Part shown: positions 2,167 to 53,879 of the stretch, in pieces | Layout of the letters: the number at the start of each line of letters is the position of its first letter | Position numbering within the stretch: position 1 is the first letter of the stretch | Source of the DNA: Aquihabitans sp. | GTDB lineage: Bacteria; Actinomycetota; Acidimicrobiia; Acidimicrobiales; Iamiaceae | Direction of reading: 5' to 3' | Assembly (NCBI GenBank): GCA_025353965.1 | Contig: JANXNS010000003.1 | Location: 10,776-74,775 of the forward strand | DNA: 64,000 bases | Notes under the pieces: model-generated | Seen by the model: only the letters and a program-made list of their open reading frames with translations | Told to the model about the DNA's origin: nothing | Databases searched by the model: none | Position numbers and translations under genes: made by a program

Positions 2167-2230
2167 GCCCGCAGTCTTGCGGGTCGAAGGGTTGGGTCCG
2201 TGGGGTGCTGACCGGGCAGGCTAGGCCGCT

Positions 2231-3655: not shown

Positions 3656-3675
3656 AGCACCAGGGGAGAGGCAGC

Positions 3676-14485: not shown

Positions 14486-14605
14486 GGAGAGATCGTACCG
14501 AGTGTGGGGACCCTCGGTGGCACCGGTCACGTTTTGGCCTCCTCGGGGGTCACCGGCGTCTCCTCGTTGGGCCTCATTGTGAGGTGGTGCCGTAGCGTGC
14601 AACGG

Positions 14606-15259
14606 ATGTCCGATCTGCCTCCCACCTCAGCCGCCGCGGTGTGGGTAATCGTGGTGGCAGCGGGGACGGGCCAGCGCTTCGGCGGGGCCAAGCAGTACGC
14701 CTCGTTGGCCGGGCGCCGAGTGGTGGATTGGTCGATCGACATGGCCCGCTCCGTCGCCCATGGTGTGGTGCTCGTGGTTCCGGCCGATGCGGCCGACGAG
14801 CCCGAGCCAGCGGTCGATGCCGTGGTGGTGGGCGGAGCAACGCGCTCAGCGTCGGTGCGGGCGGGCCTGGCGGCGGTGCCGCTCGATGCCGCCGTGGTGC
14901 TGGTTCACGACGGGGCCCGGCCGCTGGCGTCGCACGCCCTCTTTCGCTCGGTGGTCGACGCCGTGCTGGCCGGTGCCGATGCTGCCGTTCCGGTGGTCCC
15001 CGTGGTCGACACCGTGTGCGATTCCCACGGCGACCCGGTGGATCGCGAGGACCTCCGAGCCGTGCAAACCCCTCAGGGGTTTGAGGGAATCGCTCTCCGC
15101 CGGGTCCACGCCGCACGCCCCGAGGCAACCGACGACGCATCGTTGGTGGTCAGCGGAGGTGGCAGGCTGCGCCTCGTGCATGGTGAGCGCTGGAACCTCA
15201 AGATCACGGAACCGTCAGACCTTGTGGTGGCAGAAGCCATTTTGGCGGCGGGGTCCTGA
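14606..15259 (+). CDS. ispD: 2-C-methyl-D-erythritol 4-phosphate cytidylyltransferase
   Basis: VVAAGTGQRFGGAKQY, LVHDGARP, VQTPQGF, TDDA, NLKITEPSDL. Confidence 0.96.
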   Translation: MSDLPPTSAAAVWVIVVAAGTGQRFGGAKQYASLAGRRVVDWSIDMARSVAHGVVLVVPADAADEPEPAVDAVVVGGATRSASVRAGLAAVPLDAAVVLVHDGARPLASHALFRSVVDAVLAGADAAVPVVPVVDTVCDSHGDPVDREDLRAVQTPQGFEGIALRRVHAARPEATDDASLVVSGGGRLRLVHGERWNLKITEPSDLVVAEAILAAGS

Positions 15260-18453: not shown

Positions 18454-19253
18454 GTAGCAGCCGGCTCGGTGTAGAGGTTTAGGCGGCCGGGGCGGGCGAA
18501 GCCGGCTAGGGCTATGCCGGCTCGGCGGGCCGCTTCTATGGCTAGCGACGACGGGGCGCTTACCGCGACGATGGTTCCGAAGCCGGCCGCCCACGCCTTT
18601 TGGACAATCTCGAAACTGGTGCGGCCGCTCACGAAGAGCCCCAGTTGGCTGGCCGGGAGGGTGGCGTCGAGCTTGAGGCGGCCCACCACCTTGTCGACCG
18701 CGTTGTGGCGGCCAATGTCCTCCCGGACGAGCAGGATGTCTCCGGCCAGGTCGAACGCGGCCGCGGCGTGGACTCCGCCGGTGGCCGCGAACAATTCTTG
18801 GTGGGGGTGGGCGCGGTCCGGGATAGCCATCAAGATCTCGGGGTCGAACGATGCTCGGTCAGCGAGCGGCGTGAGCCGGTCCGTCACGGCGTCTATCTCG
18901 TCGGTCCCGCACCAGCCGCACGACGACGTGGTGGTGGTCAGCCGGGGGGTGGGTGCGGGAGCTTGGCCGCCCGTATCGACGGTGACGACGTTGAACTTGG
19001 TGTCGACCGCTGAGCCCGTAGCGCAGTAGCGGACCTGCAGCACGGGCGCGCCGGCCAGCAGCCCGTCGGTGAGGCAGAAGCCGACGGCCAGCTCGTAGTC
19101 GTTGCCCGGCGTCCGCATGGTGGTGGCCACCCGCTGACCATCTAGGCGGATCTCCAGCGGCTCTTCGACGATCACGTGGTCCGGGCTGCGACCGCGGTCG
19201 CCATCGGCGAACTTTCGCACCAGTTGCGACGATGTCCGTCCGCGAGCACCCAT
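18450..19253 (-). CDS. fdhD: formate dehydrogenase accessory sulfurtransferase FdhD
   Basis: EEPLEIRL, TMRTPG, SSCGWCG, TGGVHAA, REDIGRHNAVDKVVG. Confidence 0.96.
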   Translation of the reverse strand: MGARGRTSSQLVRKFADGDRGRSPDHVIVEEPLEIRLDGQRVATTMRTPGNDYELAVGFCLTDGLLAGAPVLQVRYCATGSAVDTKFNVVTVDTGGQAPAPTPRLTTTTSSCGWCGTDEIDAVTDRLTPLADRASFDPEILMAIPDRAHPHQELFAATGGVHAAAAFDLAGDILLVREDIGRHNAVDKVVGRLKLDATLPASQLGLFVSGRTSFEIVQKAWAAGFGTIVAVSAPSSLAIEAARRAGIALAGFARPGRLNLYTEPAAT

Positions 19254-19273
19254 ACCCGCCAACCTAACGAGGC

Positions 19274-19294
19274 GGCTGGCCAGTGTGGCCAGCC
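19274..19294. terminator. hairpin between ABC-F gene and fdhD
   Basis: GGCTGGCCA-gtg-TGGCCAGCC, a perfect 9-bp stem. Confidence 0.35.
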
Positions 19295-19301
19295 ATGGCG
19301 A

Positions 19302-20957
19302 CTAGGCCACCGTCAGCGGGACGAGCTTGGCCGGTGAGAAGGGGTAGGCGGGGTCTGCGGTGATGACGTGGAGGGCGGCATCTCGGTCCAGCGCCTCTGC
19401 TACTGAGCAGTCCGCGTCCAGGATCACGAAGCGGTCGAAGCCGCGAAGGAACCAGCGGTCGTGGGTGACAGCCAGGACGGTGCCGACGAAGTCGTCCAGC
19501 GCCGCCTCCAAGGCCTCGGCCGAGGCCAGGTCGAGGTTGTCGGTGGGCTCGTCCAGCAGGAGAAGGTTGACGCCGGATAGTTCCAGGTTCAGGACCTGAA
19601 GCCGGGCTCGTTGGCCGCCGGACATGGTTTCGACTTCCCGCCGGGCGCAGTCGGCCAAGCCGTAGCGGCCGAGGGCGGCGAGCGCGGGCTGCTCGGCCAG
19701 GTCGTGGTCTCCCATGATGGCCAGCGGAGTGCGGCCGGTGAAGGCGGGGACGTCGTCGGTCTGGTGGAACAGGCCGACTTGGACCCGGGCGCCGAGGCGG
19801 AAGGCACCCTCGTGCTCGACCGACGCGTCTCCTCCGAGAAGGCGCAGCAGGTGCGACTTGCCGGTGCCGTTGGGGCCGAGGATGGCGACGCGGTCCCCGA
19901 GGTGGACCTCAAGATCGAACGCGTCGGTGAGACCCGATAGCTCGAGACCCTCGCAGCGCAGAGCGATCTTGCCGCTCTCGGCCCCGTCGAGTTTCATGCG
20001 CACGGTCCGAGCCTTGGGCGGAGGCGGTGGGGGACCGACGGCCACGTAGCGCTCCCACCGGCTCTCTGCGGCGTTGGCCTTGGCCGCGTTTCCGTCGCTG
20101 ATGGAGGCTCGCTGCTTGAGTTCTTTGAAGTAGCGGAAGAGGCGGCGCTCTTCGTCTTTCCATCGAGCCAGCGCGTCCCCGAGGGCAGCGTTGCGGGCTT
20201 GGCGGGCATCGTCGTAGGTGGCCCAGCTACCGGGGTGGGTCCAGGCGCCGGTTCCTTCGATGGTGACCACGGTGTCGGCCGCGGCGGCCAGGAGTTCTCG
20301 GTCGTGGCTGACGAGCAAGATGGTTTTGGGCGTGTGCTTCAGGCGTTCTTCCAGCCAGCGCTTGCCAGGAATGTCGAGGAAGTTGTCGGGCTCGTCCAGT
20401 AGCAGGATCTCTGCGTCGGAGGCCAGCAGCGATTCCAGCACGAGGCGTTTGCGTTCACCGCCGGACAGGCGCGAGACTGGGCGGTCGGCCACCTCCGCCA
20501 GCAGCTTGCCGAGCACCCGGGCGCAGCAGGCATCCCAGCGGCTCTCCTGGTCGTAGCCGCCGACCTCTGACCAGTCGATGACCGCGGTGGCCAACGCCAT
20601 CCCGCTTTGGTCCGTGGGTGCGGCGGCGTTGGCGGCCTCTGCCGTGGCCAGCGCTTGGCCTGCGTCTCGGATTTGGGTGGGGGCGAAGCGGACGAGGAGT
20701 TCTCGCACGGTGGTGTCGGCGTCGGCCCCGGTGCCGATGGATTGGGGCATGAGGGCCATGACGCCGTCGGCGTTGACGGAGCCCGCGAGCAGTGGGTACT
20801 CGCCGAGTACGCACCGCAGCAGCGTGCTCTTGCCCACCCCGTTGGCGCCCACGAGGGCGGCGTGCTGGCCGGAGCGGACGCGAAACGACACGTCTTCGAA
20901 TAGGGTGGACCCACCCGGGTGGGCGTAGGCCGCGCCGGAGACGTTGACGACGGCCAT
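19302..20957 (-). CDS. ABC-F family ATP-binding protein
   Basis: GANGVGKST/LSGGE/LLDEPDN and GPNGTGKS/MSGGQ/LLDEPTDNLD; start MAVVNV at 20957. Confidence 0.92.
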   Translation of the reverse strand: MAVVNVSGAAYAHPGGSTLFEDVSFRVRSGQHAALVGANGVGKSTLLRCVLGEYPLLAGSVNADGVMALMPQSIGTGADADTTVRELLVRFAPTQIRDAGQALATAEAANAAAPTDQSGMALATAVIDWSEVGGYDQESRWDACCARVLGKLLAEVADRPVSRLSGGERKRLVLESLLASDAEILLLDEPDNFLDIPGKRWLEERLKHTPKTILLVSHDRELLAAAADTVVTIEGTGAWTHPGSWATYDDARQARNAALGDALARWKDEERRLFRYFKELKQRASISDGNAAKANAAESRWERYVAVGPPPPPPKARTVRMKLDGAESGKIALRCEGLELSGLTDAFDLEVHLGDRVAILGPNGTGKSHLLRLLGGDASVEHEGAFRLGARVQVGLFHQTDDVPAFTGRTPLAIMGDHDLAEQPALAALGRYGLADCARREVETMSGGQRARLQVLNLELSGVNLLLLDEPTDNLDLASAEALEAALDDFVGTVLAVTHDRWFLRGFDRFVILDADCSVAEALDRDAALHVITADPAYPFSPAKLVPLTVA

Positions 20958-36619: not shown

Positions 36620-37117
36620 TCAGTTCGAATGGTTCGCGTATCGGACCATCGTCCAAGACGTTCCGTGCTTCTTGATCGTCACGAAGCCGGAGGACTCGTA
36701 CAGTCGACGCGCCGGATTGGCCTCGCGGACGCTGAGACTTATCGCTGGGTATCCCTGGGCAAGGCTGGCATCGAGGAGGCCGACGAGGAGCCGTCGTCCT
36801 ATTCCTTGGCCGCGACGGGAAGCGATGACGGCGATCGCCAGCTCGGGGACGTCCTCTGCGACGAAGCCATAGCCATGGCTCGCCTCGGTGAATGTGCGAT
36901 ACCAGGCCGCCCCCAACGATCCGTCTTGCTCGGCTATCAGCCCGTGGTCGCCTGGCCTCGGCCAACCGGCGAGGTACATCGCGTAGCGCGGATCTGCCAT
37001 CACCTCGTCTCCGGATGGCGTCGGCTTGTCCGGGCGCCACACGGCGGATTCACCCAGCATCGTGGCAACGAAGGGAACATCCTCGACATTGGCCGGACGG
37101 ATGCGAAGGTCTCCCAC
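36620..37117 (-). CDS. GNAT family N-acetyltransferase
   Basis: PELAIAV...RRGQGIGRRLL, ISLSV..NPARRLYE. Confidence 0.9.
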   Translation of the reverse strand: MGDLRIRPANVEDVPFVATMLGESAVWRPDKPTPSGDEVMADPRYAMYLAGWPRPGDHGLIAEQDGSLGAAWYRTFTEASHGYGFVAEDVPELAIAVIASRRGQGIGRRLLVGLLDASLAQGYPAISLSVREANPARRLYESSGFVTIKKHGTSWTMVRYANHSN

Positions 37118-37158: not shown

Positions 37159-37386
37159 ATGCGACGGCAGGTGTGGGTGGTGACGTGCGCGGTCACGGCG
37201 TTGATCTTCGGACTGATGACCGTATGGGTTGTCGGGCTGAACTTGAACGACGTCGGACGCCGCCCCTTCGTTCTCCTGCCCATGGCGGCGTACGGATGGG
37301 CCTGCTTCATGTCGGTCCGTGAGCTCCGTCGTGGGATTCGTGCTCAGCGCTCCCCACATCAGGCCCCGGCGGTGAGCGTCTCCTAA
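37159..37386 (+). CDS. small two-TM hypothetical protein
   Basis: Two hydrophobic segments; its TAA stop lies inside a copy of the 17-bp site. Confidence 0.5.
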   Translation: MRRQVWVVTCAVTALIFGLMTVWVVGLNLNDVGRRPFVLLPMAAYGWACFMSVRELRRGIRAQRSPHQAPAVSVS

Positions 37387-37829
37387 CGCCGGGTTGCTGC
37401 TAGCCGTGGCGGTGGGGGGAGGCTGCTCAGGCGTTTGGACTCGATGCGATCGGTCAGGGCGAGCACCGCTGCTGCGCCCATGCATGCGGTTCCGGGGGCG
37501 ATGAAGATCCCGATGGTCAGCATGGCCGCCATGGTTGCCAAGCCGCTGATCCCGATGACCAGCGCGCCTCCCAAGAAACCCCCGAAGCGGATCAACACGA
37601 TGGCGACTGCGGCCACGATCAACGTTGCTAGAAGCACGCGCCCTGCCATAGCGGGGTTGTTCTTCAGCGCGGAGGCGGTTCGGTGGGTCTCGCTGATCAT
37701 GGCGCCGTCCGGGCCCACCGCGCGGGTTGAGATCTCGCCCCACCCCACCGATACCAGGAATGTGGCTGCCGCCAGCCATAGGACCGCGCCGAGCATGGAG
37801 AGCCAAAGGCTCCACCCTCTTAGGCTCAT
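37383..37829 (-). CDS. hypothetical membrane protein
   Basis: Hydrophobic segments; 4-bp overlap with the upstream TetR gene. Confidence 0.6.
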   Translation of the reverse strand: MSLRGWSLWLSMLGAVLWLAAATFLVSVGWGEISTRAVGPDGAMISETHRTASALKNNPAMAGRVLLATLIVAAVAIVLIRFGGFLGGALVIGISGLATMAAMLTIGIFIAPGTACMGAAAVLALTDRIESKRLSSLPPPPRLAATRR

Positions 37830-38500: not shown

Positions 38501-38545
38501 GAGAGCCCGCGGTCGGAATCGAACCGACGACCTGCCGCTTACAAG
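38501..38545. repeat. distal att site: 45-bp duplicate of the tRNA-Thr 3' half
   Basis: GAGAGCCCGCGGTCGGAATCGAACCGACGACCTGCCGCTTACAAG, identical to 53803-53847. Confidence 0.95.
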
Positions 38546-39209: not shown

Positions 39210-39350
39210 CCAGCCGAAGCAACTGCCCCATACCGCCGGCTCGGGGTCACCGACCAGCACATCTGGGATAGCTCGTCGCAGCTCAGCGCACTCGCTATAC
39301 GCCGTCGCGGCGGCAAGCCATCTATGTTGATGTCTGACGAGGAGTAGCGC

Positions 39351-39536
39351 ATGGGACATGAGGCGGAAGACGCACCGCGGATCGCAGAGTCGGACCTTGA
39401 GCAGGCCGAGGTGCTCGAATCGGCTGGCATGCAGAACTCACTTGTTGTTGCAGGTCCCAGCGCCTTGTTGATGATCCCTGTGGCTTGGGTGCTCACGTCC
39501 GTTGGGCGGGTGGTTCGCCTGCTTTGGAACCGCTAG
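39351..39536 (+). CDS. small hypothetical membrane protein (cassette-like unit)
   Basis: GAGGAG RBS, C-terminal hydrophobic segment, stop 7 nt before the site at 39543. Confidence 0.5.
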   Translation: MGHEAEDAPRIAESDLEQAEVLESAGMQNSLVVAGPSALLMIPVAWVLTSVGRVVRLLWNR

Positions 39537-39872
39537 GTCCACTTGCCCCAGCACGCCCGACAGGGGCGCAGCTCCTCCCCGGCTCAGGCTGAGCCAGGGG
39601 CGCCGCCGCGGGCTGGGCTCTGAGCCCTCCTGCTCGATTCGCCATCGGCTTCTGGCTGAGCGGATCGCGTTGTCATCGCTCGCCCCGCCTCCGTACCAGC
39701 CGCTACGTCCCACCCCGCACCAGTGAGAGAACTCCGACGCATCCCGAACTGTTCGTGAGACCGTTCGCGCCTCCGGGCGATCGGGAGCATCCTGGTGGAG
39801 TTCCAGGTCGAAGCCCTGGCCCGCGAACCAGGCGACGATGTCCTCGATCGGTTCCTGCTCGGGCAGAGGCAT
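39438..39872 (-). CDS. hypothetical protein (cassette-like unit); C-terminus runs through the site at 39543
   Basis: Globular-looking N-terminal ~85 aa; tail overlaps the neighbouring ORF, so the true end is uncertain. Confidence 0.4.
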   Translation of the reverse strand: MPLPEQEPIEDIVAWFAGQGFDLELHQDAPDRPEARTVSRTVRDASEFSHWCGVGRSGWYGGGASDDNAIRSARSRWRIEQEGSEPSPRRRPWLSLSRGGAAPLSGVLGQVDLAVPKQANHPPNGREHPSHRDHQQGAGTCNNK

Positions 39873-39974
39873 CGCGAGACCCTGACATGTGTCCTCGCCA
39901 AGGGCGCCCCCAAACGCCGGGTCGTGGGCATGGTCGCCACAGCGCTCAGGAAGGGACAGTCAGGCGAGGCGGCA

Positions 39975-40301
39975 TCAGGCATCGTCGGACACGATGAGGG
40001 GGCGATTGGTTCGCCGGGTCCAGGGACCACGGCGGCGCACCAACACCTCTACGCCGGAACGAACATCGTGCTGGGCGCAAATGTCGTCGAGCAAACGGCT
40101 CCGGTCGGCGCAATCGGTCGCTACGACCTCCTGCACCACCGCTCCGGTGTCCGCGGCCAGCACGGTGATGCTCCAGCCGGATTCCAGGAGTTCGGCAAGT
40201 GCCGCGTTGCCTGTCTGTACCAGCGCAATCCCCAAAACGCCGATGACGCGTCTACGGGATGGCGGGATCTCTACCACGAGGAGGTCGACGGGATCACCCA
40301 T
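39975..40301 (-). CDS. hypothetical protein (cassette-like unit)
   Basis: GGAGGAGG RBS before MGDPVDLL; bounded by sites 39904 and 40406. Confidence 0.55.
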   Translation of the reverse strand: MGDPVDLLVVEIPPSRRRVIGVLGIALVQTGNAALAELLESGWSITVLAADTGAVVQEVVATDCADRSRLLDDICAQHDVRSGVEVLVRRRGPWTRRTNRPLIVSDDA

Positions 40302-40457
40302 GGCAGCGCCTCCTCCTCCATCTCGATGCGAAATAGGCTGAGAGGCCTGACCCGCCAACCATTGCACGTCTGCCCGAGATCTTAACGCCCGAAGTCCCGG
40401 CTCAGGTGCCCTACAACGCCGGCTCAGGGCGCAGGGATCGACCCAGACGCCTTCTCC

Positions 40458-40988
40458 TCAAGCTCGCTCGACAGGTTGTGTGGACGGCTTCCTGCGGCGA
40501 GCGCCGATCAAGAGGGAACCGATGGCTACCGCTGCCGGCGCAGACCGGAGGACGACATCGCGCGCGACGATTGTCTCCGACGAGTAGCAGGTCTGGTTCT
40601 CGTCGTAGCTGTCGACGAAGCAGCGGCGGTCCTCGCCAGGGTGACGGGCGCCGAAGCTCACCATGAGGACTGCGAGGAGAAGCCAACCCAGCACGATCCA
40701 GGGAGCTGAACGGTGGCGCTCCTTCGCCAGCACCACGAGGCTCGCAAGTAGAGCGGCGGCGATGCCGACTACCACGATGCCGATGTACAGAGTCGGGCCG
40801 TTGGGAAAGTCGGCGCCGTTGTCGCTGCTGTACTCCACGCCGAACATCCTGGGCTTCGAGCCCCAGGCAATGCTTCGGAGGCCGTAGTAGGCGAGGGCCA
40901 GGGCGTACGGGCTTGCCGTCACCAGGGCGATCGCCGTCGACGTACGAACGTGGCCGCCGCCGGCGTTGTCAATCTGCTGTTCCGCCAT
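40458..40988 (-). CDS. hypothetical membrane protein (cassette-like unit)
   Basis: About 4 TM segments; bounded by sites 40406 and 41023. Confidence 0.65.
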   Translation of the reverse strand: MAEQQIDNAGGGHVRTSTAIALVTASPYALALAYYGLRSIAWGSKPRMFGVEYSSDNGADFPNGPTLYIGIVVVGIAAALLASLVVLAKERHRSAPWIVLGWLLLAVLMVSFGARHPGEDRRCFVDSYDENQTCYSSETIVARDVVLRSAPAAVAIGSLLIGARRRKPSTQPVERA

Positions 40989-41106
40989 CGTCGTACCGTA
41001 GCTGCGCGCCGAAACGCCGCGGGTGCCCCCAAACGCCGGGATGCGGCCACGGCCACCTGGCACTTCGGGGATGGTCCGATCGACATGGAGGTCGTAGCGT
41101 CCGTGG

Positions 41107-41739
41107 ATGGCCGCCTTGGAGCATCCGGGTTCTGCGGTCGGCAGTCAGTCCGACAAGGCTGAGTCCGGCGGTGAGAGAGGACCGGTCACGTTGTCCGACG
41201 GAGCAGTCGTGCTCAGACCCTGGAAGTCCTCCGACGCCGCTTTCATGGTTGAAGCCTCGAGGGAACCGGCAATAGAGCGTTACAACGGCACGGCGCCAGC
41301 CTCGGAGGCTGACGCCGTTGCCGTCATCGAGCGCATCCAGGAGAGCTGGCGTGCCTTCGAGGTCGAGGGTCATCCGACGGGGACCGCCTTCGTGATCGTG
41401 GATGCTGCCCTGGACGAACCTGTCGGAATGTGTGGCGTCGACCACTGGTCGAGCACCGACGTAGCCCAGTTCGGTTACTGGCTGGCGGCCGGTGCAAGAG
41501 GGCGAGGGATTGCGACTCGCGCCGCAACGCTGATGACGGGTTGGTTGTTCGAGCTCGGAGCGGCCCGGGTCTTCCTGACGATTGAGACCGACAACGCACC
41601 ATCGGTTGCGGTCGCCCGTCGGGTCGGGTTCACCTGCGAGGGCACGCTTCGTGCCTTCGGCGTCTGGCAGGGGCAACGTCGAGACGTGGACGTTTTCGCC
41701 GTCCTTCCCGATGAGTGGCCTCTGGGCGGGGACCACTGA
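41107..41739 (+). CDS. GNAT family acetyltransferase (RimJ/RimL-like)
   Basis: VVLRPW, QFGYWL...ARGRGIATRA, NAPSVAVARRVGF..EG; the site at 41740 follows the stop directly. Confidence 0.9.
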   Translation: MAALEHPGSAVGSQSDKAESGGERGPVTLSDGAVVLRPWKSSDAAFMVEASREPAIERYNGTAPASEADAVAVIERIQESWRAFEVEGHPTGTAFVIVDAALDEPVGMCGVDHWSSTDVAQFGYWLAAGARGRGIATRAATLMTGWLFELGAARVFLTIETDNAPSVAVARRVGFTCEGTLRAFGVWQGQRRDVDVFAVLPDEWPLGGDH

Positions 41740-41826
41740 CTGCCCCGCAACGCCGGGTAGAGGCCGCGACCGACGGCACATCGGTGGCACCCTCGGGTGA
41801 CGTCCAGGCCCGCGGCCACCGAGTGC

Positions 41827-42210
41827 ATGATGTGGACAATGCGGATTGCGATTGCGGTTGTGTTGGTACTCGCTGCGGTGGGGTGCGGGAACATCGTCTC
41901 GGACTCCGACGCGTTAGCGGTTCGGTTCAAGAACGACCTGGGCAAGCCCGTGCGGCTTGCACTCTGCAACAGCGACCACAGCGAGAAGTGCGAGAATCCG
42001 GCCTACTCCGACCCGGTCCCTGCTGGCGGGTCGATCGAGGAGAACATCGCTCCGACCGTGCAGACGGAATGGGCTGTGCTGGACGACCGGGATCGTCCCA
42101 TGCGCTGCGTTGTCCTCTACTGGCAACATGATCCGCTCGACGAGCCAGTCATTCGGTTGTCCTCCTCGCCACGATGGGCGAACCCTTGCCCCCGTCGGTC
42201 CAACACGTAA
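41827..42210 (+). CDS. putative lipoprotein (cassette-like unit)
   Basis: Signal peptide with lipobox LAAVG-C; Cys-containing mature domain. Confidence 0.65.
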   Translation: MMWTMRIAIAVVLVLAAVGCGNIVSDSDALAVRFKNDLGKPVRLALCNSDHSEKCENPAYSDPVPAGGSIEENIAPTVQTEWAVLDDRDRPMRCVVLYWQHDPLDEPVIRLSSSPRWANPCPRRSNT

Positions 42211-42332
42211 GTCGAGTCGAGGACCCCGGGTCGCTGGCGGGTGTCCCACAACGCCGGGTCGAGGCGTGCCAGACCGGCACCTTCGGGATACTCATCATCT
42301 TCGCCAGAACTGGCTTTCCTTGGACTTCGTCG

Positions 42333-42875
42333 TCAACCCAGCTTTCGGTCGTAGCGGCGAGCCACCGCGGCGAGTAGGGCCAGAACCACACTCAGGGCCA
42401 CCACCAGGCCCGCAGCTGCGTATGGCCACGAGCGATCGAAGCCGGTCGACGACGACCCAAGGTAGGAGCCGTCGATCGCGGTGGTGCCAGCGCCGGTACC
42501 GCAGTCGCCGTGAAAGTCGTAGGCGATCTGGGAGCTGACCCCATCCCCGCCAGACTGGTTGTTCCACCCCTTCACCCGATAGGACTCCCTCGGCATGAGC
42601 TCGCCGGGCGACCCGTCGTAGCGAACCACAACGGTTCCGCCCGGTTCCGGAATCTGACCCGCCCCGAACGGGTTGTCCTGTCGCACCCTGTCCACGCGAT
42701 AGGTGATACGGGGGCCGTCCATGGAGACGATCGTGCCGTCGAAGCTGAACCTCATCGCCCCCATCGAGCATGCATCCGCTCGCACCGGTTCACCGAGTGC
42801 GCCGAACGTAGCAGCGGCTACAAGCACGACCGCAGCCACCGACCACCGCCCCGCCCGCCAGACATCCCTCGCCAT
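42333..42875 (-). CDS. secreted, C-terminally anchored protein (cassette-like unit)
   Basis: Signal peptide, ADACSM, C-terminal TM segment followed by RRYDRK. Confidence 0.62.
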   Translation of the reverse strand: MARDVWRAGRWSVAAVVLVAAATFGALGEPVRADACSMGAMRFSFDGTIVSMDGPRITYRVDRVRQDNPFGAGQIPEPGGTVVVRYDGSPGELMPRESYRVKGWNNQSGGDGVSSQIAYDFHGDCGTGAGTTAIDGSYLGSSSTGFDRSWPYAAAGLVVALSVVLALLAAVARRYDRKLG

Positions 42876-42985
42876 CGCGGCATTCTGCCACAAAGTGCCC
42901 GGACGCGCACCCGGCTCCGCGACCCCATTGAGGTGCCCCACAACGCCGGTTCCCGGCGAGGGTTGTGCTCACTTGGCAGCCGAGG

Positions 42986-43624
42986 TCACCTGCCATGGCG
43001 GTCCGGCGTGTCGTTGAGCCAGAGGTCCGCATCCGGTCGGCGTCTGCGCTTCCACCACATCGCCGCCCGGAACCGTCGCGGGATCCTGCGCGGTTCTTCG
43101 ATCCTGAGCTGGCCGATGACGTTGCCGTCGACATCGAGGACCTCCGTGCTGCGTGCGGATGCGCGGTCAACCGTCACGACCCAGCCATGCGCGGGAACGT
43201 CTCGCGTCCGACCGTCCCTCCGCATCCGGGTTGCCTCCGAGACCAGGAGCCAGAGCCCGACGCAGTCTCCGGTGCGGACGTCGCCCTGCGTCGCGCCCTC
43301 CGAACACCCGTTGTGTCCCGACGTTGATCGAGGCGGAAGCACTGGCTCGCTGAAGTCCGATGAAGGACCGATCTGATCCCACACCCACGCCCCCTCTTCG
43401 CGACGGAAGCGGTGCGCTTCGATTACGAGCCCTGTGCGCTTGCCTCGACGTGCCACGGCCACGGCGGCGAGGTCCCCTCGAACATCGAGGCCCAGGAGGC
43501 GCCACCGTTGCCGACGGCTCATCTCCTTGGGGGAGCCGAGTCCATCGGCGTCGAGTGCCGCGGCCGCGCCCGCCACAATTTCCGCCCGTTGGGCGAGGAC
43601 TCGTTCCAGGTCTGCGCGTCGCAC
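42986..43624 (-). CDS. hypothetical protein (cassette-like unit)
   Basis: ORF between sites 42933 and 43682; GTG start inferred. Confidence 0.45.
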   Translation of the reverse strand: MRRADLERVLAQRAEIVAGAAAALDADGLGSPKEMSRRQRWRLLGLDVRGDLAAVAVARRGKRTGLVIEAHRFRREEGAWVWDQIGPSSDFSEPVLPPRSTSGHNGCSEGATQGDVRTGDCVGLWLLVSEATRMRRDGRTRDVPAHGWVVTVDRASARSTEVLDVDGNVIGQLRIEEPRRIPRRFRAAMWWKRRRRPDADLWLNDTPDRHGR

Positions 43625-43696
43625 AGCGCCAACGATTGCACCTGCGCCATCAAGAGACGGCGCGAGTTCACACAGCAGCGAGTGCCCCACAACGCC

Positions 43697-44227
43697 TAAT
43701 ACATGGGTGATCCATCGGGTCTCTCGGTGTAGCTCGCTGGTGGCGGGGAGCATGCGGGGATGAGCGACTTCCCATGTCTGGTCCGATCCTCGGGCGCTGG
43801 CGGGGAGGTGCGGTTCGCGCTGGGTGATCCGCTGGTCGACTCGTATCTGGCGTTCGTGGCTGGGAGGGCTCGGCCGAACACGCTGCATGCGGTCGCACGC
43901 GATCTGAAGACCTTCTTCACTGTCGTGGCCGAGGGGCCGGCCGAGGTGAGGTCTGCGGACGTGTTCGAGTTCCTGGCGCATCAGCGCGGCGACCGGACGG
44001 TGGTGCGCATCTCCGATCGCGAGTCGGGGTTGTCGGCGCGGACGATCGCCCGGCGGCTCTCGACGGTGTCGGGGTTCTACGCGTACCTGGTCGCGCGCGG
44101 CGACGCCGGCGTAGACGCGAACCCGGTTCCTCGGGGTCTGGCCACACGTCGACGTGGCGGACGCACCCAGACGGTCCCGTTGGTCCGGGCTTGGTGGCTG
44201 GCAGCCGCCTTCTCTTGGGCCATGTAA
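43697..44227 (+). mobile_element. internally deleted tyrosine-recombinase element inserted in a 17-bp site
   Basis: Terminal inverted repeats TACATGG (43700-43706) and CCATGTA (44220-44226) around a truncated integrase. Confidence 0.6.
43760..44227 (+). pseudogene. N-terminal (SAM-like) fragment of a XerD-like tyrosine recombinase
   Basis: LVDSYLAFV..RARPNTL, LSARTIARRLSTVSGFY.YL, NPVP; catalytic domain absent. Confidence 0.82.
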
Positions 44228-44258
44228 ACCATGGGGCGTCCGCAGGCGTATCTGAGGT

Positions 44259-44762
44259 GTGGAAGTGATCGGCGAGCGCGCTTTTGACGGAGAGTTCCCC
44301 GACCTGCTCCGTGTTGCGTACCGAGCAGCCTTCCGGATCACCGGAGACGCGGCCGCTGCAGAGGACGCCGCTGCGGAGGCACTGGCGAGGGCGTCGCTGC
44401 GTTGGGAACGCATCTCCGAACGGGCCACGCCCTGGGTCGTCCGGGTCGCGTCGAACCTTGCCGTCGACCACCTCCGCCGGGCTGCTCGCCGGAACCGGTT
44501 CGCACGGGACCGCTCCGATGCCAGCCCGGGCGAACACCGCTGCACCATCGACCTCCACCGGGCTCTCCAGACCCTGCCCAGACGACAACGTGAGGTCGTC
44601 GTCCTCCGGTATTTCGGTGACCTGAGCGAAGCCGAGATCGCAGCCGAGCTCGGCGTCGCCGCCGGAACCGTGAAGAGCCACGCCAGCCGCGGCCTCGCCG
44701 CCCTCCGCCTGCTCCTCGAAGACCGTCCTGTTCCTGCCGCCCTGCAACGAGAGGCAAGCTAA
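44259..44762 (+). CDS. ECF RNA polymerase sigma factor (SigE-like)
   Basis: AEDAAAEALARA, PWVVRVASN, LPRRQREVVVLRY, GVAAGTVKSHASRG. Confidence 0.92.
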   Translation: MEVIGERAFDGEFPDLLRVAYRAAFRITGDAAAAEDAAAEALARASLRWERISERATPWVVRVASNLAVDHLRRAARRNRFARDRSDASPGEHRCTIDLHRALQTLPRRQREVVVLRYFGDLSEAEIAAELGVAAGTVKSHASRGLAALRLLLEDRPVPAALQREAS

Positions 44763-46207
44763 TGACCGAGAACCAGTCCCTCGGGCACCCTGCACAAGAG
44801 CCCGACACCGCCACCGAAGCCCGAGTCCGGGCGCGAGTCACTGCGACCGTCCGCCTACGACGGGCCCGCCGGCGTGCCATGACCGCCCTTCCCGTCATCG
44901 CCGTGATCGCTCTCGTAGCCGTAGCCGTCGCCAACACGCGGGACAACAGCACGGGCCAGGACCGCCAAGTCGTCACCGCCGGGCACGGCGACGTCGAGCT
45001 GGCGTTCGAACCGGACGTCGAATGGGACGACGCCGTCTTGTCCGCCGACGGCAAGACCCTGACGGTGACCGCCAGCCGCGTCCTGCACAACTCGAGGAGC
45101 TGCCAGCTCGACGTCCTCCACGACGTCGTCGAAACCGATGATGCGGTGACCATCGGCCTCAAGGACGCCACCGCACCCGAGGACACAACTCCGATGGCAT
45201 GCAAGGCGGTGCTCGTACCCGCCGTCGTCAAGATTCCACTCAATGAACCTCTGGGGGACCGGGCCGTCTTTGACGGTGTGCGACCCAAGGCGCGCACTGT
45301 CCTCCGGCTCGCCGAGCTCGTCCAGGTCACCTACGTCCCCGCCGGGTTCACGACCAACCCCGACGACATCCCGTCCAAAGACACGAACGTGCAGCAGACC
45401 TACAATGCCGACGGGGCCGACTGGTACTTCGCTGTCAACGAAACCAAGGCTGCGACGCCGACCGACCTCCCGGGCGCCACGTCGACACCGATCTTGGTCA
45501 ACGACATCGAAGGTGTGCGGATCACCGGTCAGATGAACAACACCATGGAGTCCATCCGCTTCCCCCTTGGCGGCCGGACGGTCACCGTGTGGGGCGAGAT
45601 GCAAGGACCGCCGACGTTCACCCACGCCGACGAGCTCCAAAAGATCGCCGAGGGCATCCGACTCCTCGAAGCGGGAGCCAAGGATCTTCCGGCGGTCACA
45701 ACTTCAGCCCCAACGGATTCCGGCCACAGCACCGGAGCCCCCAAAGGGACACCCCAGCAGCCCACCCCTCAGACCGATAGCTTCGAAATCGAAGTGTCCC
45801 CCGAGTCCCCATACGCAATCGGGATTCGAAAGGCTCTCGACTTAGGCCCAACTCCCGTCACACGGGTCACACGGGTCAACGTTGACAACAAATCGTTCGT
45901 GCACGACAGCGTCAACACGCAAGCCGATCAAGGTCTCAGCGCAACGATCTACCACGATTGCGCCCTCTTCCTGACAGAGAGGGGCGAACCCGACGCCGCC
46001 TCCTCAGGTGCCAATGTCTGGATCGGCGTCGTGAACGACGAGCTCGTGACGCTCGGCTTCTACAACCCCGAAACGGGAGTGGCACTCTCGGTGAGCTACA
46101 CAAGCGCTGACCACCGGCCCGTCACCACCGCCAGCCTGACTGCAACCGCAGCACGCTTGTCCGCCGTGCCGGCCGTGGTGGAAGAAGTCGGAGGTGGCTG
46201 TGAGTAG
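44762..46207 (+). CDS. membrane-anchored extracytoplasmic protein (putative ECF partner)
   Basis: TAATG coupling to the sigma gene, basic patch plus one TM segment, large ectodomain. Confidence 0.62.
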   Translation: MTENQSLGHPAQEPDTATEARVRARVTATVRLRRARRRAMTALPVIAVIALVAVAVANTRDNSTGQDRQVVTAGHGDVELAFEPDVEWDDAVLSADGKTLTVTASRVLHNSRSCQLDVLHDVVETDDAVTIGLKDATAPEDTTPMACKAVLVPAVVKIPLNEPLGDRAVFDGVRPKARTVLRLAELVQVTYVPAGFTTNPDDIPSKDTNVQQTYNADGADWYFAVNETKAATPTDLPGATSTPILVNDIEGVRITGQMNNTMESIRFPLGGRTVTVWGEMQGPPTFTHADELQKIAEGIRLLEAGAKDLPAVTTSAPTDSGHSTGAPKGTPQQPTPQTDSFEIEVSPESPYAIGIRKALDLGPTPVTRVTRVNVDNKSFVHDSVNTQADQGLSATIYHDCALFLTERGEPDAASSGANVWIGVVNDELVTLGFYNPETGVALSVSYTSADHRPVTTASLTATAARLSAVPAVVEEVGGGCE

Positions 46208-46701
46208 GTGTGACCGGGCCCTGCCCCCTGCCGCCGGGGCTGGACCAGCCCGGACCGCCATCTTGTTCGTGGCCAGCGCCTATTGCCATCCGGCCCAGTA
46301 CCCCGGCCAGGCCCGGCGCGTCTACTGCGTTGCGGCTGTCGTCCCGCTGGCGGGCTGAGCAGGCTCGACCGCTTCAGTCAGCGGTGATCGAGACCTCCAC
46401 CGTGTGAAGCCCCTGGGCCGATTCTGTGACCTGGGGATTACGCGAAGTCCCTGCTCAGAGGGTCCGCTTGGGCACCCCGAATTCACTCCCGTACCCCTCA
46501 GTCCATCCCGTCCGCGGGTTTCCGCGGGTTTTCTGGCCGCCGGTCAGGCTGGCCCCGGCGCTCCAAGCGGAAGCGAGAAGCCAGGGCTGAACGCTCTCGG
46601 GTATGACGCTGGGAGCGACCTTCGCCCGTCGCTAGCAGACCCGGAAAGTGTGATCGGTGTCGGCGGGGGCGTCCCTCGGTCGTTGATGTAAGTTTTGATC
46701 G

Positions 46702-49039: not shown

Positions 49040-49097
49040 ATGTGAACGACGATTTTGGACAGACGAGTGCATTGTGTCCCGGTGGGTGGTCCCGGTG

Positions 49098-51725
49098 ATG
49101 CGGGTGACGACGCTGAAGACGTCGGCCGGTGGCCTTGCTGGGTTGATCGGCTACTACGCCGGTCTGGCCGAGGACCGCACCCGTCAGGGCGCCGGGCGTG
49201 GCCCGGTGGATTACTACGTGGACCCGGACGAGCCGGCCGGCGTGTGGTGGGGATCGGGGCTCGGCGCCCTCGGCCTACGCGGCGAGGTCCAGGGTGAGGA
49301 CCTGCGTTCGTTGCTGGCGGGGGAGGACCCGGCGACAGGCTGGCCGTTGGGTCGGTCGTTCGGCGAGCGCTCGGCCCGCGGGTTTGATGCGACGTTCTCG
49401 GCGCCGAAGTCCGTCTCTGCGCTGTGGGCGCTGACGCCGGATCGGTGGGTTCGGGCCGAGGTCCTGGCCGCGCATGATGCTGCCGTGACGGCGGCCCTCG
49501 GGTGGTTCGAGGAGCACGGGGCGGTGACGCGCCGTGGCCGCGATGGTGTCGATCAGGTCGACTCGCTTGGGGTGACGGCGGCGTTGTTTCGTCAGCACAC
49601 GTCGCGGTCGATGGACCCGCAGTTACACACCCACGCGGTGATCTCGTCGAAGGTCCAAGACGCCACGGGGAAGTGGTTGGCGCTCGATGCCCGGTTCTTG
49701 AAGTTTCAGCAACGCAGCATCGGCTGGATCTACGACGCCGCCCTCCGCTCCGAGCTCACAACCCGCCTCGGCGTCACCTGGGATGCCGTCACAGCTGGAC
49801 CGGTCGACCTGGCCTGCGTTCCCGCTGAGGTGCGAGGCGTGTTGTCGAAACGGACCGGACAGATCGACGAGAAGCTCGGCGAGCTGCTCGAGCGGTGGAT
49901 GAACGAACACGACGGCGACGACCCAGACCCGGAGACGATCGCCGCGCTGGAACGCAAAGCCGTCCTCGCCTCCCGGCCAGCCAAGACGCACGGCGTCGAC
50001 GCTGGCGGGCTGCACCAGGAATGGGCGGCAGAGGCCGAGTCGGTGGGATTCGACCCGGACTCGCTGACAGCCGGTGGCATCCGGCGGCACGAGTCGCCAT
50101 CGCGAGTCGACGACCTGGCGTTGATCGAGGCTGCGATCGCTGGGGTGTCGGAGGAGTCCTCGACGTGGCTCGAAGCGGACTTGGCTCGGCACCTGGCCAC
50201 GATGCTCCCGGCCGACACCGGCCGCTCTGCGCAGGGTCTGGTCGTACTGATCGACAGCCTCGCTGCGTCGGCGGTGTCGTACTGCCGGGACATCTCCCCG
50301 GTCCCGTCTTGGGGGCCGTGTCGCAAGGACGGCCGTCCGATCGGTGAGCACGTCACGGACCACCGACTCAGCACCGATGACATCCTCGACCAAGAGCAGG
50401 ACCTGCAGGACTGGGCCCAAGCCTCCACCACCCCGCCGCCGGCCACCGATGACCCACAAGCAACCGCGGCCGGCGCCATCGCCGGGACCGACGGGCTGGT
50501 GGTGATCGTGGGCCCGGCGGGGACCGGCAAGACCACCACCATCGCCCGATCCGTCACCACCCTCCGCCACCAGCGACGGCCAGTCGTGGGCCTGGCGCCG
50601 TCGGGTAAGGCCGCCGACGTGCTCGCCACCGAGGCCGGCTGCGACAGCCTCACCCTCGCCTCGTTCCTCCAACGCCACACCGACCAGAGCCGACCGTCCG
50701 CGTGGCCGGCGGGGACGACGGTGGTGCTCGATGAGGCCGCGATGACCCGCACCGACGACCTCCACCGCCTCGTCACCCTCACCCGCCAACACCAATGGCG
50801 CCTCGTCGCCGTCGGCGACCCGGCACAACTCGGGGCCGTCGGACGCGGCGGAGTGTTCGCCCACTGGACCGCGACCGTCGCACACCACGAACTGGTAACC
50901 CCCCGGCGCTTCACCGAGCCCTGGGAAGCCGCCGCCAGCATCGCCCTGCGCGCCGGTGCCCCCGACGTCGCCGAGATCTATGCGTCGCATCACCGGCTCC
51001 ACACCACCCACCCCGCCCTCCTGGCCGCCCGCATCGCTCGTGAGGCTGCCGCTGACCTGGCGGCTGGGCTCGACATCGCCATCACCACCAAGACCGCCGA
51101 CACCGCACGGGCCATTAACCGAGCCATCCAGAACGCCCGACCCTCGGACCCCGAGCTGCACGTCGAGCTGGCGGATGGCACTTCGGCCCACGATGGTGAC
51201 CGAGTTGCCACTCGTCGCAATCGACCCGACCTCGTCACTACCGAGGGCGAGCCGGTTCGCAACCGGCACACCTGGACCGTCCGGGCTGTCGGCACCGATG
51301 GCGCGCTCACCGTCGACCACCCCAAGCGAGGCAGCGTCGTGCTGCCCGCCGACTACGTGGCCACGCAGGTCGAGCTCGGTTGGGCCGTCACTGGCTATGG
51401 GAACCAGGGCGACACCGTCGACATCGCTTACGCCATCCTCGAAGCCGGCACTGACCGCTCCGATGCCTATGTCGCGCTCACGCGCGGCCGTCACGCCAAC
51501 CACGCCTTCATCCCCGACCCCACCGGCACCCTCGACGCCGCCGAACAACTGGCCCAGACCATCAGCCACACCCCCGAACACGACTCGGCTCTCGCCTCCC
51601 ACCGGGCGCTCGTCCGCACCCACCTCAGCCACCAGAAACACGAACCGGCAGGCCCTGAGCCGATGACGGAGCCGCCCGCAAGCTCTGCCCCGTCCCACCA
51701 CGAACCGCCCGGACTGTCACTCTGA
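49098..51725 (+). CDS. MobF (TrwC/TraI-like) relaxase-helicase
   Basis: N-terminal Tyr pair (GYY), W.G.G, DATFSAPKSVS, HTSR..DPQLHTH His triad; helicase GPAGTGKTT, LDEAAM, AVGDPAQL, QG.TV, YVALTRGR. Confidence 0.95.
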   Translation: MRVTTLKTSAGGLAGLIGYYAGLAEDRTRQGAGRGPVDYYVDPDEPAGVWWGSGLGALGLRGEVQGEDLRSLLAGEDPATGWPLGRSFGERSARGFDATFSAPKSVSALWALTPDRWVRAEVLAAHDAAVTAALGWFEEHGAVTRRGRDGVDQVDSLGVTAALFRQHTSRSMDPQLHTHAVISSKVQDATGKWLALDARFLKFQQRSIGWIYDAALRSELTTRLGVTWDAVTAGPVDLACVPAEVRGVLSKRTGQIDEKLGELLERWMNEHDGDDPDPETIAALERKAVLASRPAKTHGVDAGGLHQEWAAEAESVGFDPDSLTAGGIRRHESPSRVDDLALIEAAIAGVSEESSTWLEADLARHLATMLPADTGRSAQGLVVLIDSLAASAVSYCRDISPVPSWGPCRKDGRPIGEHVTDHRLSTDDILDQEQDLQDWAQASTTPPPATDDPQATAAGAIAGTDGLVVIVGPAGTGKTTTIARSVTTLRHQRRPVVGLAPSGKAADVLATEAGCDSLTLASFLQRHTDQSRPSAWPAGTTVVLDEAAMTRTDDLHRLVTLTRQHQWRLVAVGDPAQLGAVGRGGVFAHWTATVAHHELVTPRRFTEPWEAAASIALRAGAPDVAEIYASHHRLHTTHPALLAARIAREAAADLAAGLDIAITTKTADTARAINRAIQNARPSDPELHVELADGTSAHDGDRVATRRNRPDLVTTEGEPVRNRHTWTVRAVGTDGALTVDHPKRGSVVLPADYVATQVELGWAVTGYGNQGDTVDIAYAILEAGTDRSDAYVALTRGRHANHAFIPDPTGTLDAAEQLAQTISHTPEHDSALASHRALVRTHLSHQKHEPAGPEPMTEPPASSAPSHHEPPGLSL

Positions 51726-52241: not shown

Positions 52242-52448
52242 ATGACCACCCTGGACACCTCGCATGACGGGTCCCTCATGGACCTGCCTGCCGTTGCTGA
52301 ACGGCTCGGCGTCAACGAACGACACATCCGACGCCTCGTTGCCGAACGACGCATCCCCTATCTCAAGTGGGGCCACCTGCTCCGCTTCGACCCCACCGAC
52401 ATCGACACCTGGCTCGACCAGGCCCGCCACACCCCACGCACCGCCTGA
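52242..52448 (+). CDS. excisionase-like HTH_17 protein
   Basis: LMDLPAVAERLGVNERHIRRLV..RRIPYLKWGHLLRFD; GGAGG RBS. Confidence 0.88.
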   Translation: MTTLDTSHDGSLMDLPAVAERLGVNERHIRRLVAERRIPYLKWGHLLRFDPTDIDTWLDQARHTPRTA

Positions 52449-52527
52449 ACACCCGTACCCTGGAGCTGCACGCGTCGTCGGGGTCGCTCAACCCCCTCCT
52501 CCCACCCTGCAATCGGGAGGTCGTTCA

Positions 52528-53691
52528 ATGACGCGCCGATCCTTCGGAGCCCTACGCAAGCTCCCCTCCGGACGCTGGCAAGCCAGCTACACCGACGAAC
52601 GCACCGGCGAGCGAACCATCGCCCCGGCCACCTTCACCACCAAGACCGACGCCAACCTCTGGCTCTCCAGCATCTCCCTCGACCGCTCACGCGGCCGGCT
52701 CCTCGACCAAAAGCTCAGCCAACGACCCTTCCAGGACTGGGCAGCCGAGTGGATGGGCGGGCTCCACGTAAAGCCCAAGACCGAGGTGAGCTACGAGTCG
52801 TCACTGCGCAACCACGTCCTGCCCGTCTTCGAGGGGCGAGCGGTCGGATCGATCACGTATCGCGACGCCAAGCAGTTCGTCGCCGATCTCGCCAACAAGG
52901 GGCTGGCCCCCGGCACAATCGACGAGGCCCGCAAGATCCTTCGGATGGTGCTCCAGGAGGCACTCCGGGCCGACGCCATCAGCCGCAACCCCGCCGACGG
53001 GCTCCGGGTCCCCCGAGGCGAGCGGCAGGAGATGGTGTTCTTGACCGCCGAGCAGGTCTTCGCCCTCGCTGACGAAGTCGCTCACCCTCCACGCCCCCAG
53101 CGCCACCCGCAGCTGGAGTTTCCGAACTACGGACTGCTGGTGCGGTTCGCGGCGTTCACCGGTCTCCGAGCGGGTGAGATCGGCGCCCTCCGCATCGGAC
53201 GCATGGCTCCGGACGGTCGCTGGGTCGAGGTCGCCGAATCAGCAGAAGAGGTTCACGGCGAACTCGTCTACGGCCCTCCCAAGACCTACGCCCGGCGCCG
53301 AGTCGAAATTCCGACCGCTCTGGCGGTCGAGCTCCAAGAGCACCTGGCGACGCGGCCGGCTGCGCACGACGCGTTCGTGTTCACCGCCCCGGACGGCGGG
53401 GCCCTCCGTCACTCGAACTTCTACCGACGCCACTACAAGCCGGCGGTGGCCCGTTCGGACCTCGACCCCCGGACCCGGTTCCACGATCTCCGCCACACCG
53501 CCGCCGCGATGATGATCGGTCAGGGCGCCCACCTGCTCGTGGTCAAGGAGCGCCTCGGGCACTCCAGCATCACGGTCACCGCCGACCGGTACGGGCACCT
53601 CTACCCATCCCTATCGGCTGCGCTGACCGCCCAGCTCGAGGACGTCTACACCGCGGCCGCGGGCACCGGCAGCGCCCGCAACCGGCCGTGA
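52528..53691 (+). CDS. tyrosine recombinase/integrase
   Basis: Complete catalytic set: GLRAGE (R), FHDLRHT (HxxR), RLGHS (H), RYGH (Y); N-terminal RKLPSGRWQA arm domain. Confidence 0.96.
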   Translation: MTRRSFGALRKLPSGRWQASYTDERTGERTIAPATFTTKTDANLWLSSISLDRSRGRLLDQKLSQRPFQDWAAEWMGGLHVKPKTEVSYESSLRNHVLPVFEGRAVGSITYRDAKQFVADLANKGLAPGTIDEARKILRMVLQEALRADAISRNPADGLRVPRGERQEMVFLTAEQVFALADEVAHPPRPQRHPQLEFPNYGLLVRFAAFTGLRAGEIGALRIGRMAPDGRWVEVAESAEEVHGELVYGPPKTYARRRVEIPTALAVELQEHLATRPAAHDAFVFTAPDGGALRHSNFYRRHYKPAVARSDLDPRTRFHDLRHTAAAMMIGQGAHLLVVKERLGHSSITVTADRYGHLYPSLSAALTAQLEDVYTAAAGTGSARNRP

Positions 53692-53802: not shown

Positions 53803-53847
53803 GAGAGCCCGCGGTCGGAATCGAACCGACGACCTGCCGCTTACAAG
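53803..53847. repeat. proximal att site (within tRNA-Thr)
   Basis: Identical to 38501-38545. Confidence 0.95.
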
Positions 53848-53879
53848 GCGGCTGCTCTGGCCAACTGAGCTACACGGGC
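53806..53879 (-). tRNA. tRNA-Thr(UGU)
   Basis: Acceptor stem GCCCGTG/CGCGGGC, D arm TAGCTCAGTTGGCCAGAGC, anticodon stem GCCGC-CTTGTAA-GCGGC, T loop GGTTCGATTCC; CCA not encoded. Confidence 0.96.

Follow-up and report, generated by a model that had tools for sequence, protein, structure and literature searches.

We report on an array of small gene cassettes in a 64-kb stretch of DNA from Aquihabitans sp. (Acidimicrobiia; positions 10,776 to 74,775 of contig JANXNS010000003.1), hereafter the window, whose coordinates we use unless a related locus is named by its L number. The region from 39.2 to 43.7 kb probably consists of seven or eight single-gene cassettes, divided by co-oriented, double-stranded recombination sites of ~30 bp. 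Beyond the window, we propose, at a probability of about one half, that Acidimicrobiia, along with some other Actinobacteria, have a self-contained analogue of integrons, in which single-gene cassettes are moved at double-stranded sites by two tyrosine recombinases (YR1 and YR2) of a Tn554-related element that is itself a movable cassette. This proposal is built on the anatomy and co-orientation of the sites, on homology that breaks at them, on cassettes shared between arrays and on the presence of the recombinase element inside sites.

The left arm of the sites, GTGCCCCACAACGCCGG, has eight matches at no more than three mismatches in the window (starting at 39223, 39904, 40406, 41023, 41740, 42241, 42933 and 43682; span 39223-43698), all of them on the plus strand. 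Window shuffles give a chance expectation of 0.83, and 0 of 100 shuffles reached eight. All eight run in the same direction and fall within 4.5 kb of the 64 kb, with neighbouring copies 500-750 bp apart and one small open reading frame (ORF), on either strand, in each interval. Sites and cassettes are listed below, with scores from a position weight matrix (PWM) and a caret marking the break within a site.

39221-39249, plus strand: site 1, AACTGCCCCATACCGCC^GGCTCGGGGTCA, a motif match at the left end of the array, soft PWM score 27.1.
39541-39565, plus strand: weak, degenerate site (the 39554 copy, CGCC-CGACAGG-GGCG), PWM score below 8, a real break point.
39902-39930, plus strand: site 2, PWM score 26.7.
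40404-40432, plus strand: site 3, PWM score 16.8.
40458-41063, minus strand: cassette 3 ORF, membrane-protein-like, GC content at third codon positions 0.80, no Pfam family above the curated cut-off.
41021-41049, plus strand: site 4, PWM score 24.8, with the motif GGCACTTCGGGGATGG downstream at 41055-41075.
41107-41739, plus strand: cassette 4 ORF, a GNAT acetyltransferase (Pfam Acetyltransf_3, E-value 4e-23).
41738-41766, plus strand: site 5, PWM score 22.1, starting directly after the GNAT stop codon.
41797-42210, plus strand: cassette 5 ORF, lipoprotein-like, no family.
42239-42267, plus strand: site 6, PWM score 23.7.
42333-42941, minus strand: cassette 6 ORF, with a homologue adjoining the L083 site array in the same relative orientation.
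42931-42959, plus strand: site 7, exchange point mapped by aligning cassette 7 with L087 and L088.
42986-43660, minus strand: cassette 7 ORF, with 80-84% identical homologues inside arrays L087 and L088, where its neighbours are different.
43680-43696, plus strand: half site, left arm and core GAGTGCCCCACAACGCC, left-half PWM score 18.3 and right-half score -4.5, fused to the left end of a recombinase element.
46219-46247, plus strand: weak site-like sequence CCCTGCCCCCTGCCGCC^GGGGCTGG, directly after a 481-aa ORF, PWM score 10.8, status uncertain.

The last of these, near 46235, thus compares with scores of 17-27 for the array sites. Numbering positions such that CGCC is -6 to -3, GG stands at +5/+6 in all seven strong complete sites of the window, and GCC-N7-GGC is found in five of the seven, against a GGC background of 3% per position. 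A preliminary description of this DNA had taken the dyad (C)GCC-N7-GGC(G) for a recombinase core with a variable overlap. All seven strings that it quoted are present at the coordinates given, and the dyad holds for the window but not for the site family, since only 6% of the 147 related sites collected from other genomes have GCC-N7-GGC, and 16% have GCC-N8-GGC. The right arm in the window reads GGnWnnnGGC, which produces the apparent dyad, and the rarity of the dyad elsewhere makes it a local variant of this arm, and not the symmetry that defines the site. One of the quoted copies, at 39554, scores poorly as a site yet is a real break point of homology.

Aligned across genomes, the general site reads as a left arm GGTGYCCCmk, a core AWC(G/A)CC, GG and a right arm nWCGGnG. 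In the site profile the left arm and core (-17 to -1) are conserved and the right arm is weaker; to the right of CGCC, two independent site sets conserve GG-n-W-C-G-G-n-G (W at +1, 89-99%; G at +4, 66-85%; G at +6, 80-88%). In ~1.1 Mb of DNA flanking the recombinase elements, 127 sites lie on the strand of the element and 22 on the opposite strand (PWM 12). As many as 13 of them are strung together in one array, at a usual spacing of 300-900 bp and a mode of 500-700 bp. Three strong sites are also present in L085, from Aquihabitans sp. McL0605. The core is CACC instead of CGCC in six of the seven sites of the L087 array (1000-4189), and both junctions of an element copy in L074 read CAC, in contrast to CGC in its sister copies, which suggests that cores must match within one system.

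The eighth copy of the left arm in the window leads into the recombinase element. Past AACGCC it runs into the terminal repeat of that element, and 60 bases further on starts the ORF of YR1, whose N-terminus matches the tyrosine-recombinase domain Phage_int_SAM_1 of Pfam. Two features make up what follows the half site:

43697-44189, plus strand: element remnant, terminal repeat TAATACATGGGTGATCC and then codons 1-143 of YR1 (ORF 43760-44227).
44259-46207, plus strand: extracytoplasmic function (ECF) sigma factor gene (44259-44762; Pfam Sigma70_r2/r4) and its 481-aa partner ORF, which replace the rest of the element.

YR1 has 1267 relatives in the database and 196 in bacterial contigs taken at one genome per species, mostly metagenome-assembled genomes of Acidimicrobiia. 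The complete element, with ends defined by comparing copies within one genome, is 2.42 kb long and multi-copy in Acidimicrobiia genomes. It starts with (C/T)TAATACACGGGTGATC and ends with GATCACCCGTATAACGCC. Two overlapping recombinase genes, YR1 (~350 aa) and then YR2 (~430 aa), take up its length. Both proteins retain the catalytic R..K..HxxR..H..Y residues, and the solved structures that they match best are XerA, a XerC-like protein and XerD. The element is flanked by G-T-G-Y-C-C-C-m-k-A-W-C-G-C-(C/T), that is, the left arm and core, at 71 distinct left junctions and by GG-n-T-C-G-G-n-G-S-S at 40 distinct right junctions, captured with the anchor TATAAC[GA][CT]C. At these junctions insertion is site- and orientation-specific, with no duplication of the target. 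The right end of the element, TATAACGCC (AACGCC), is the same in 40 of 40 captured copies, whereas the left flank varies at -7 and -3; L074, with the right end TATAACACC (AACACC), falls outside this set. With a two-recombinase element inserted in such sites at ~70 loci, the preliminary view of them as tyrosine-recombinase sites is borne out.

The copy of the element in the window is dead, as its homology to all related elements ends at 44189 and the sigma factor gene and 481-aa ORF follow. The cut lies within the loosely site-like sequence ..GTCCCGTTGGTCCGG^GCTTGGTGG.., and between it and the sigma factor gene stands a terminator-like hairpin (44193-44209); the cut may be a deletion through a pseudo-site. 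Many YR1 relatives in the database, also those of L001 and L002, are 150-270 aa long owing to frameshifts, and several come from nanopore-based assemblies. These short forms are probably assembly errors and not true truncations; unlike them, the window YR1 loses homology at 44189 in every comparison.

The cassettes themselves recur in other arrays. Homologues of cassette 7, 84% and 80% identical, are carried by two short contigs from other samples, each within an array of seven or eight co-oriented sites and with the gene again antiparallel to the sites. In the DNA alignment of the window with L087, the shared pattern begins at CC GG^TTCC(C/T)GGCG and persists as far as GAGTGCCCC of the following site, between flanks that bear no relation to each other. 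A second cassette, A, of 580 bp, is 93.6% identical between L066 (14399-14979) and L069 (18964-19544) and has different neighbours on both sides; identity starts at ..^CCGGGCGTGGGG and stops at ..GATCG^, with the breaks in the core. Two contigs from freshwater-sediment runs of other samples also break at sites: one matches the window from 42932 and diverges upstream, and the other matches 39553-39855 at 89% with an upstream sequence unlike that of the window. A look for empty-site orthologues of occupied sites among the loci compared found none. The same cassette in different arrays, with homology bounded by sites, means that each site is a hybrid of two units. This agrees with the preliminary description, which had seen in each site the end of one unit and the start of the next: cassette homology starts past the core and ends in the next left arm. 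Among the cassette genes are those for GNAT proteins, methyltransferases, a MazF toxin, glyoxalase, HAD and SnoaL proteins, and many are without a family. By a crude ORF call, 20 ORFs across the arrays run in the same direction as the sites and 24 in the opposite direction, so that cassettes probably carry their own promoters; no terminators or promoters were found at the sites.

Could the sites be mere landing pads for selfish elements (the two-recombinase element, IS110-family elements and others), with the cassette pattern produced in some other way, for example by homologous recombination between the 17-25 bp repeats? The sites do take up four or more different elements at precise positions, and the assembled contigs show no cassette circles. 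We nonetheless consider this unlikely, because the same cassette is present in unrelated arrays of different samples with breaks inside the core, and because strict co-orientation and units of 300-900 bp are what serial site-specific insertion is expected to yield. In addition, every unrelated cassette starts with the conserved right arm, pointing to recognition by a protein.

The position of the exchange bears on a second alternative. Positions -10, -9, -7 and -5 track the upstream unit, and position -3 (C or T) tracks the lineage of the inserted element, with C in the array sites of the same genomes. A -5 that follows the upstream unit and a -3 that follows the element place the junction at -5^-4 or -4^-3, i.e., in CG^C^C. 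For site 7 the exchange falls at 42945^42946 or 42946^42947 (ACG^C^C GG), inside the left arm of the dyad and 1-2 nt left of the 7-nt spacer. The partners in recombination always share A.C(G/A)C. The ends of the element are invariant across insertion sites, so it carries no coupling sequence, unlike Tn916 or Tn554. This pattern would fit an exchange in the short shared core better than one across a heterologous spacer, with an overlap whose extent we infer from the alignments.

The dyad could nevertheless be the functional core, with exchange across a variable spacer that tolerates heterology in the manner of Tn916 Int or IntI, as the preliminary description had it. Besides the five window sites with the dyad, some targets of the element read CGCC-N7-GGCG (L016, L075 and L079), an overlap to the right of the mapped exchange would cover CCGGnWn and thus part of the spacer, and the element sequence beyond the exchange on the right (CYTAATA) does not resemble that of the target (CCGGnTC). 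Against this stand the 6% frequency of the dyad in the site family, break points in CG^C^C and not in the spacer, and element ends that are invariant, with precise junctions and no heterologous coupling sequence, while the recombinases are neither IntI nor demonstrably of the Tn916 type. Recombination with no overlap homology is also doubtful, since the partners share A.C(G/A)C and the core variants CACC and CAC are matched within their systems. An exchange across the variable spacer is therefore improbable in our view, and the Tn916-type assignment does not hold.

The enzyme acting on the cassette sites is likely the YR1 and YR2 pair of the Tn554-related element. Each cassette would begin with the right arm and finish with the left arm and most of the core, giving hybrid junctions, with exchange at CG^C^C, within the core that the partners share. 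A pair of direct sites would release a cassette circle carrying one complete site, which could re-enter at any other site, and arrays would in this way grow and shuffle. The recombinase element would occupy sites like a cassette, making the recombinase genes one unit of the array. By analogy with XerC/XerD, the two proteins may divide the arms between them, one binding the conserved and the other the degenerate arm. The window copy being dead, any movement of cassettes would need an intact element elsewhere in the genome.

Several points weigh against this reading of the array. No circular cassettes or excision products were observed, and the assembled contigs of the four runs that hold the window show no variants of the array. 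The informative break points come from just about four cassette families, and homologues of cassette genes are also found away from strong sites (L082 and L089). The ends of the element are 13-bp inverted repeats, GATCACCCGTRTA, spaced ~5 bp wider than the arms of the cassette sites; because of this difference, site-by-site recombination by the YR pair is an assumption. Furthermore, one array, L083, flanks a different, single Xer-like recombinase with 29% identity to YR1.

Two of these points, arm spacing and L083, would equally suit cassette sites that are genuine and served by another recombinase, either host XerC/XerD or a single Xer-like enzyme such as that of L083 (a 302-aa gene product flanked by four plus and three minus sites), the two-recombinase element being a parasite of the system. 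Yet many genomes have such arrays around the two-recombinase element, running in its direction; its right end shares the core of the sites, and in L074 element and sites agree in their core variant. We therefore hold out little prospect for a separate enzyme and prefer the YR1 and YR2 pair.

Reading the minus strand, the preliminary description had also seen in the sites the right half of an integron attC, and a GGCAC downstream able to pair with GTGCC of the left arm. GGCAC is indeed present (41059, 41775/41786 and 42276), but the pairing finds no support in an excess of inverted repeats: the mean best match of the left arm to an inverted partner downstream was 6.93 in its own site and 6.93 in swap controls. 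One attractive hairpin between left arm and downstream sequence (L001 20103) was set aside as not general by the same controls. Folding the DNA of 11 sites gave no stability above shuffles (z-scores from -1.75 to +1.74), complementarity of junction halves or of cassette ends equalled that of random pairs, no covariation was seen, and the sole match to Rfam families was tRNA. The assignment to IntI fared no better. Against the NCBIfam model integrase_gron, YR1 scored 68.8 bits and YR2 42.6 bits (cut-off 265), a match to IntI4 in the Protein Data Bank (PDB) spans residues 274-316 only, and the scores to the XerC/XerD equivalog models are 103-134 bits (cut-offs 330-335); the recombinases are Xer-like and Tn554-related. 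Integron-type recombination of sites folded as single strands like attC, with one-strand exchange resolved by replication, is thus very improbable, despite the integron-like logic of the arrays, homology on only one side of the exchange point and a short hairpin that site 7 could form (CACAACGCCGG-TTC-CCGGCG..GTTGTG, z-score -1.75), given that the folds of the 11 sites did not beat shuffles, self inverted repeats and complementarity stay at control levels, no match is specific to IntI and ORFs are oriented both ways (20 and 24).

The GGCAC sequences belong to a recurrent motif, (GAC)CGGCACyTCGGGG(ATGG), located 31-69 nt downstream of ~10 sites in several genomes. It is indifferent to gene orientation and is not confined to the vicinity of sites, as it occurs also behind a stop codon elsewhere. 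In L001 the motif is part of a conserved block of ~50 nt, GTTCGCGATCGnGGCCGAnCGGCAC. Its copies are:

Window, 41055-41075, 41770-41795 and 42270-42290: CGGCACyTCGGGG motif.
Other loci, L001 12385, 15245, 17290 and 20145; L068 6299; L069 9505; L033 6560; L040 7805: CGGCACyTCGGGG motif.

The array as a whole lies within what looks like an integrative mobilisable element of ~15.3 kb, bracketed by 45-nt repeats at which the assembly graphs of four runs break. Its features, and one further site outside it, are as follows:

37374-37402, plus strand: extra strong site, GAGCGTCTCCTAACGCC^GGGTTGCTG, PWM score 22.7, outside the tRNA-bounded element.
38501-38545, no strand: 45-nt direct repeat of the 3' part of tRNA-Thr at 53803-53847 (BLAST, 100% identity over 45 nt).
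49074-51725, plus strand: MobF/TrwC relaxase.
52264-53691, plus strand: tyrosine integrase adjoining tRNA-Thr.
53805-53879, minus strand: tRNA-Thr.

The site at 37374-37402 is 1.1 kb outside the tRNA-bounded element and adjoins a 200-aa ORF with no Pfam match and a TetR gene; a GNAT gene (36620-37117) lies nearby. The chromosome itself may carry sites near the tRNA.

Other elements were encountered in sites at related loci. L001 has two IS110-family copies with a DEDD transposase (13850-15225 and 18300-19675; 97.8% identical), located exactly after ..GAACGCC of two sites; in parallel, IS1111-attC elements target the attC sites of integrons. An element of ~1.35 kb that starts with ATGCTCCTATGGACTGTCAAG follows ..A(A/T)CG^ of a site in four genomes (L066 14979, L072 13434, L068 4232 and L078 2700), and its 398-aa ORF matches no Pfam family. 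A cousin of the two-recombinase element, with the left end TTATACAGGTGATCCACC, stands after CGCCGG in L069 (14478-17553), L019 (2588) and L006 (9242); its L069 copy has a single 771-aa product with two tyrosine-recombinase catalytic domains, apparently the two recombinases fused. Finally, L083 (3843-9772) consists of four plus sites, the 302-aa Xer-like recombinase, a 375-aa ORF without a family and three minus sites, which makes two inverted arrays around a recombinase of another kind.

Integrons are the main known case of cassette capture at recombination sites, and complete integrons were lacking in all Actinobacteria genomes analysed by Cury et al. 2016 (PMC4889954). If our proposal is true, cassette-based capture arose independently of IntI and attC, within a phylum that had no complete integrons in that survey, and this second solution differs by its double-stranded sites, its Tn554-type pair and its recombinase module in the form of a cassette. 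Cassette arrays would then be a convergent way to organise accessory genes. The sites would also be a natural substrate set for dissecting recombination by a Tn554-type pair, the transposition route of Tn554 being still unresolved (PMC10214605), as well as a handle for mining the small accessory genes of Acidimicrobiia abundant in soil and water and possibly a new site-specific tool for high-GC bacteria.

How does this system compare with those already described? We found no literature description of such cassette arrays, whereas the recombinase pair itself is a member of a known, mechanistically unstudied Tn554-like class. Tn554-like elements without TnpC include the short and long recombinase pair of pREL1, and arrays of cognate sites or cassettes are not reported for this class (Van Houdt et al. 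2012, PMC3414803). YR1 is 61% and YR2 52% identical to this pair from Rhodococcus erythropolis (341 aa short, 611 aa long), and both systems have two adjacent, co-directional tyrosine recombinase genes and inverted-repeat ends GATCACCC..TA. Here, however, YR2 has no N-terminal extension of ~190 aa (429 versus 611 aa), and the pREL1 target differs. Multi-copy, site- and orientation-specific insertion without target duplication is shared with the actinobacterial Tn554-like class as well. Tn554 itself (TnpA, TnpB, TnpC) has one ordinary and one larger tyrosine recombinase and is target-specific, likewise with no target duplication (PMC10214605). The Staphylococcus element differs in its third gene, tnpC, whereas two ORFs fill the 2.42 kb here, and in copying a 6-bp donor footprint to the new right junction, which we do not see; the footprint model of Tn554 and strand-biased elements was ruled out by the nearly invariant right end. 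BIM and RIT elements were discarded as well, the former pairing a recombinase with a non-recombinase protein and the latter having three recombinases.

Parallels in how arrays are built come from dif/pdif modules and IMEX arrays at dif. These too use Xer-like recombinases, possibly as a heteromeric pair, on sites with one conserved and one degenerate arm around a short core, and repeated insertion regenerates the site and builds tandem arrays. The anatomy seen here (conserved arm, short core, degenerate arm) would be compatible, judging by sequence, with the XerC/XerD-dif layout, in which two 11-bp arms, each bound by one recombinase, enclose a central region of 6-8 bp. In contrast to Xer modules, in which pdif sites alternate in orientation, all sites here point in one direction, their sequence is unlike dif and the recombinases are encoded by an element.

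Integrons differ from the present arrays in more than their IntI. Here the sites are simple consensus sequences with no cassette-specific palindrome or fold, the orientation of cassette ORFs is mixed where those of integrons mostly follow the sites and are read from a platform promoter, and the recombinase module is movable within the array in place of a fixed platform with attI and Pc. The general plan is nevertheless shared: cassettes of 0.3-1 kb, mostly with a single gene, in co-oriented arrays with a hybrid site at each junction, a content of small accessory genes, toxins, GNAT proteins, glyoxalases and many ORFans, and IS110-family elements inserted precisely in the sites.

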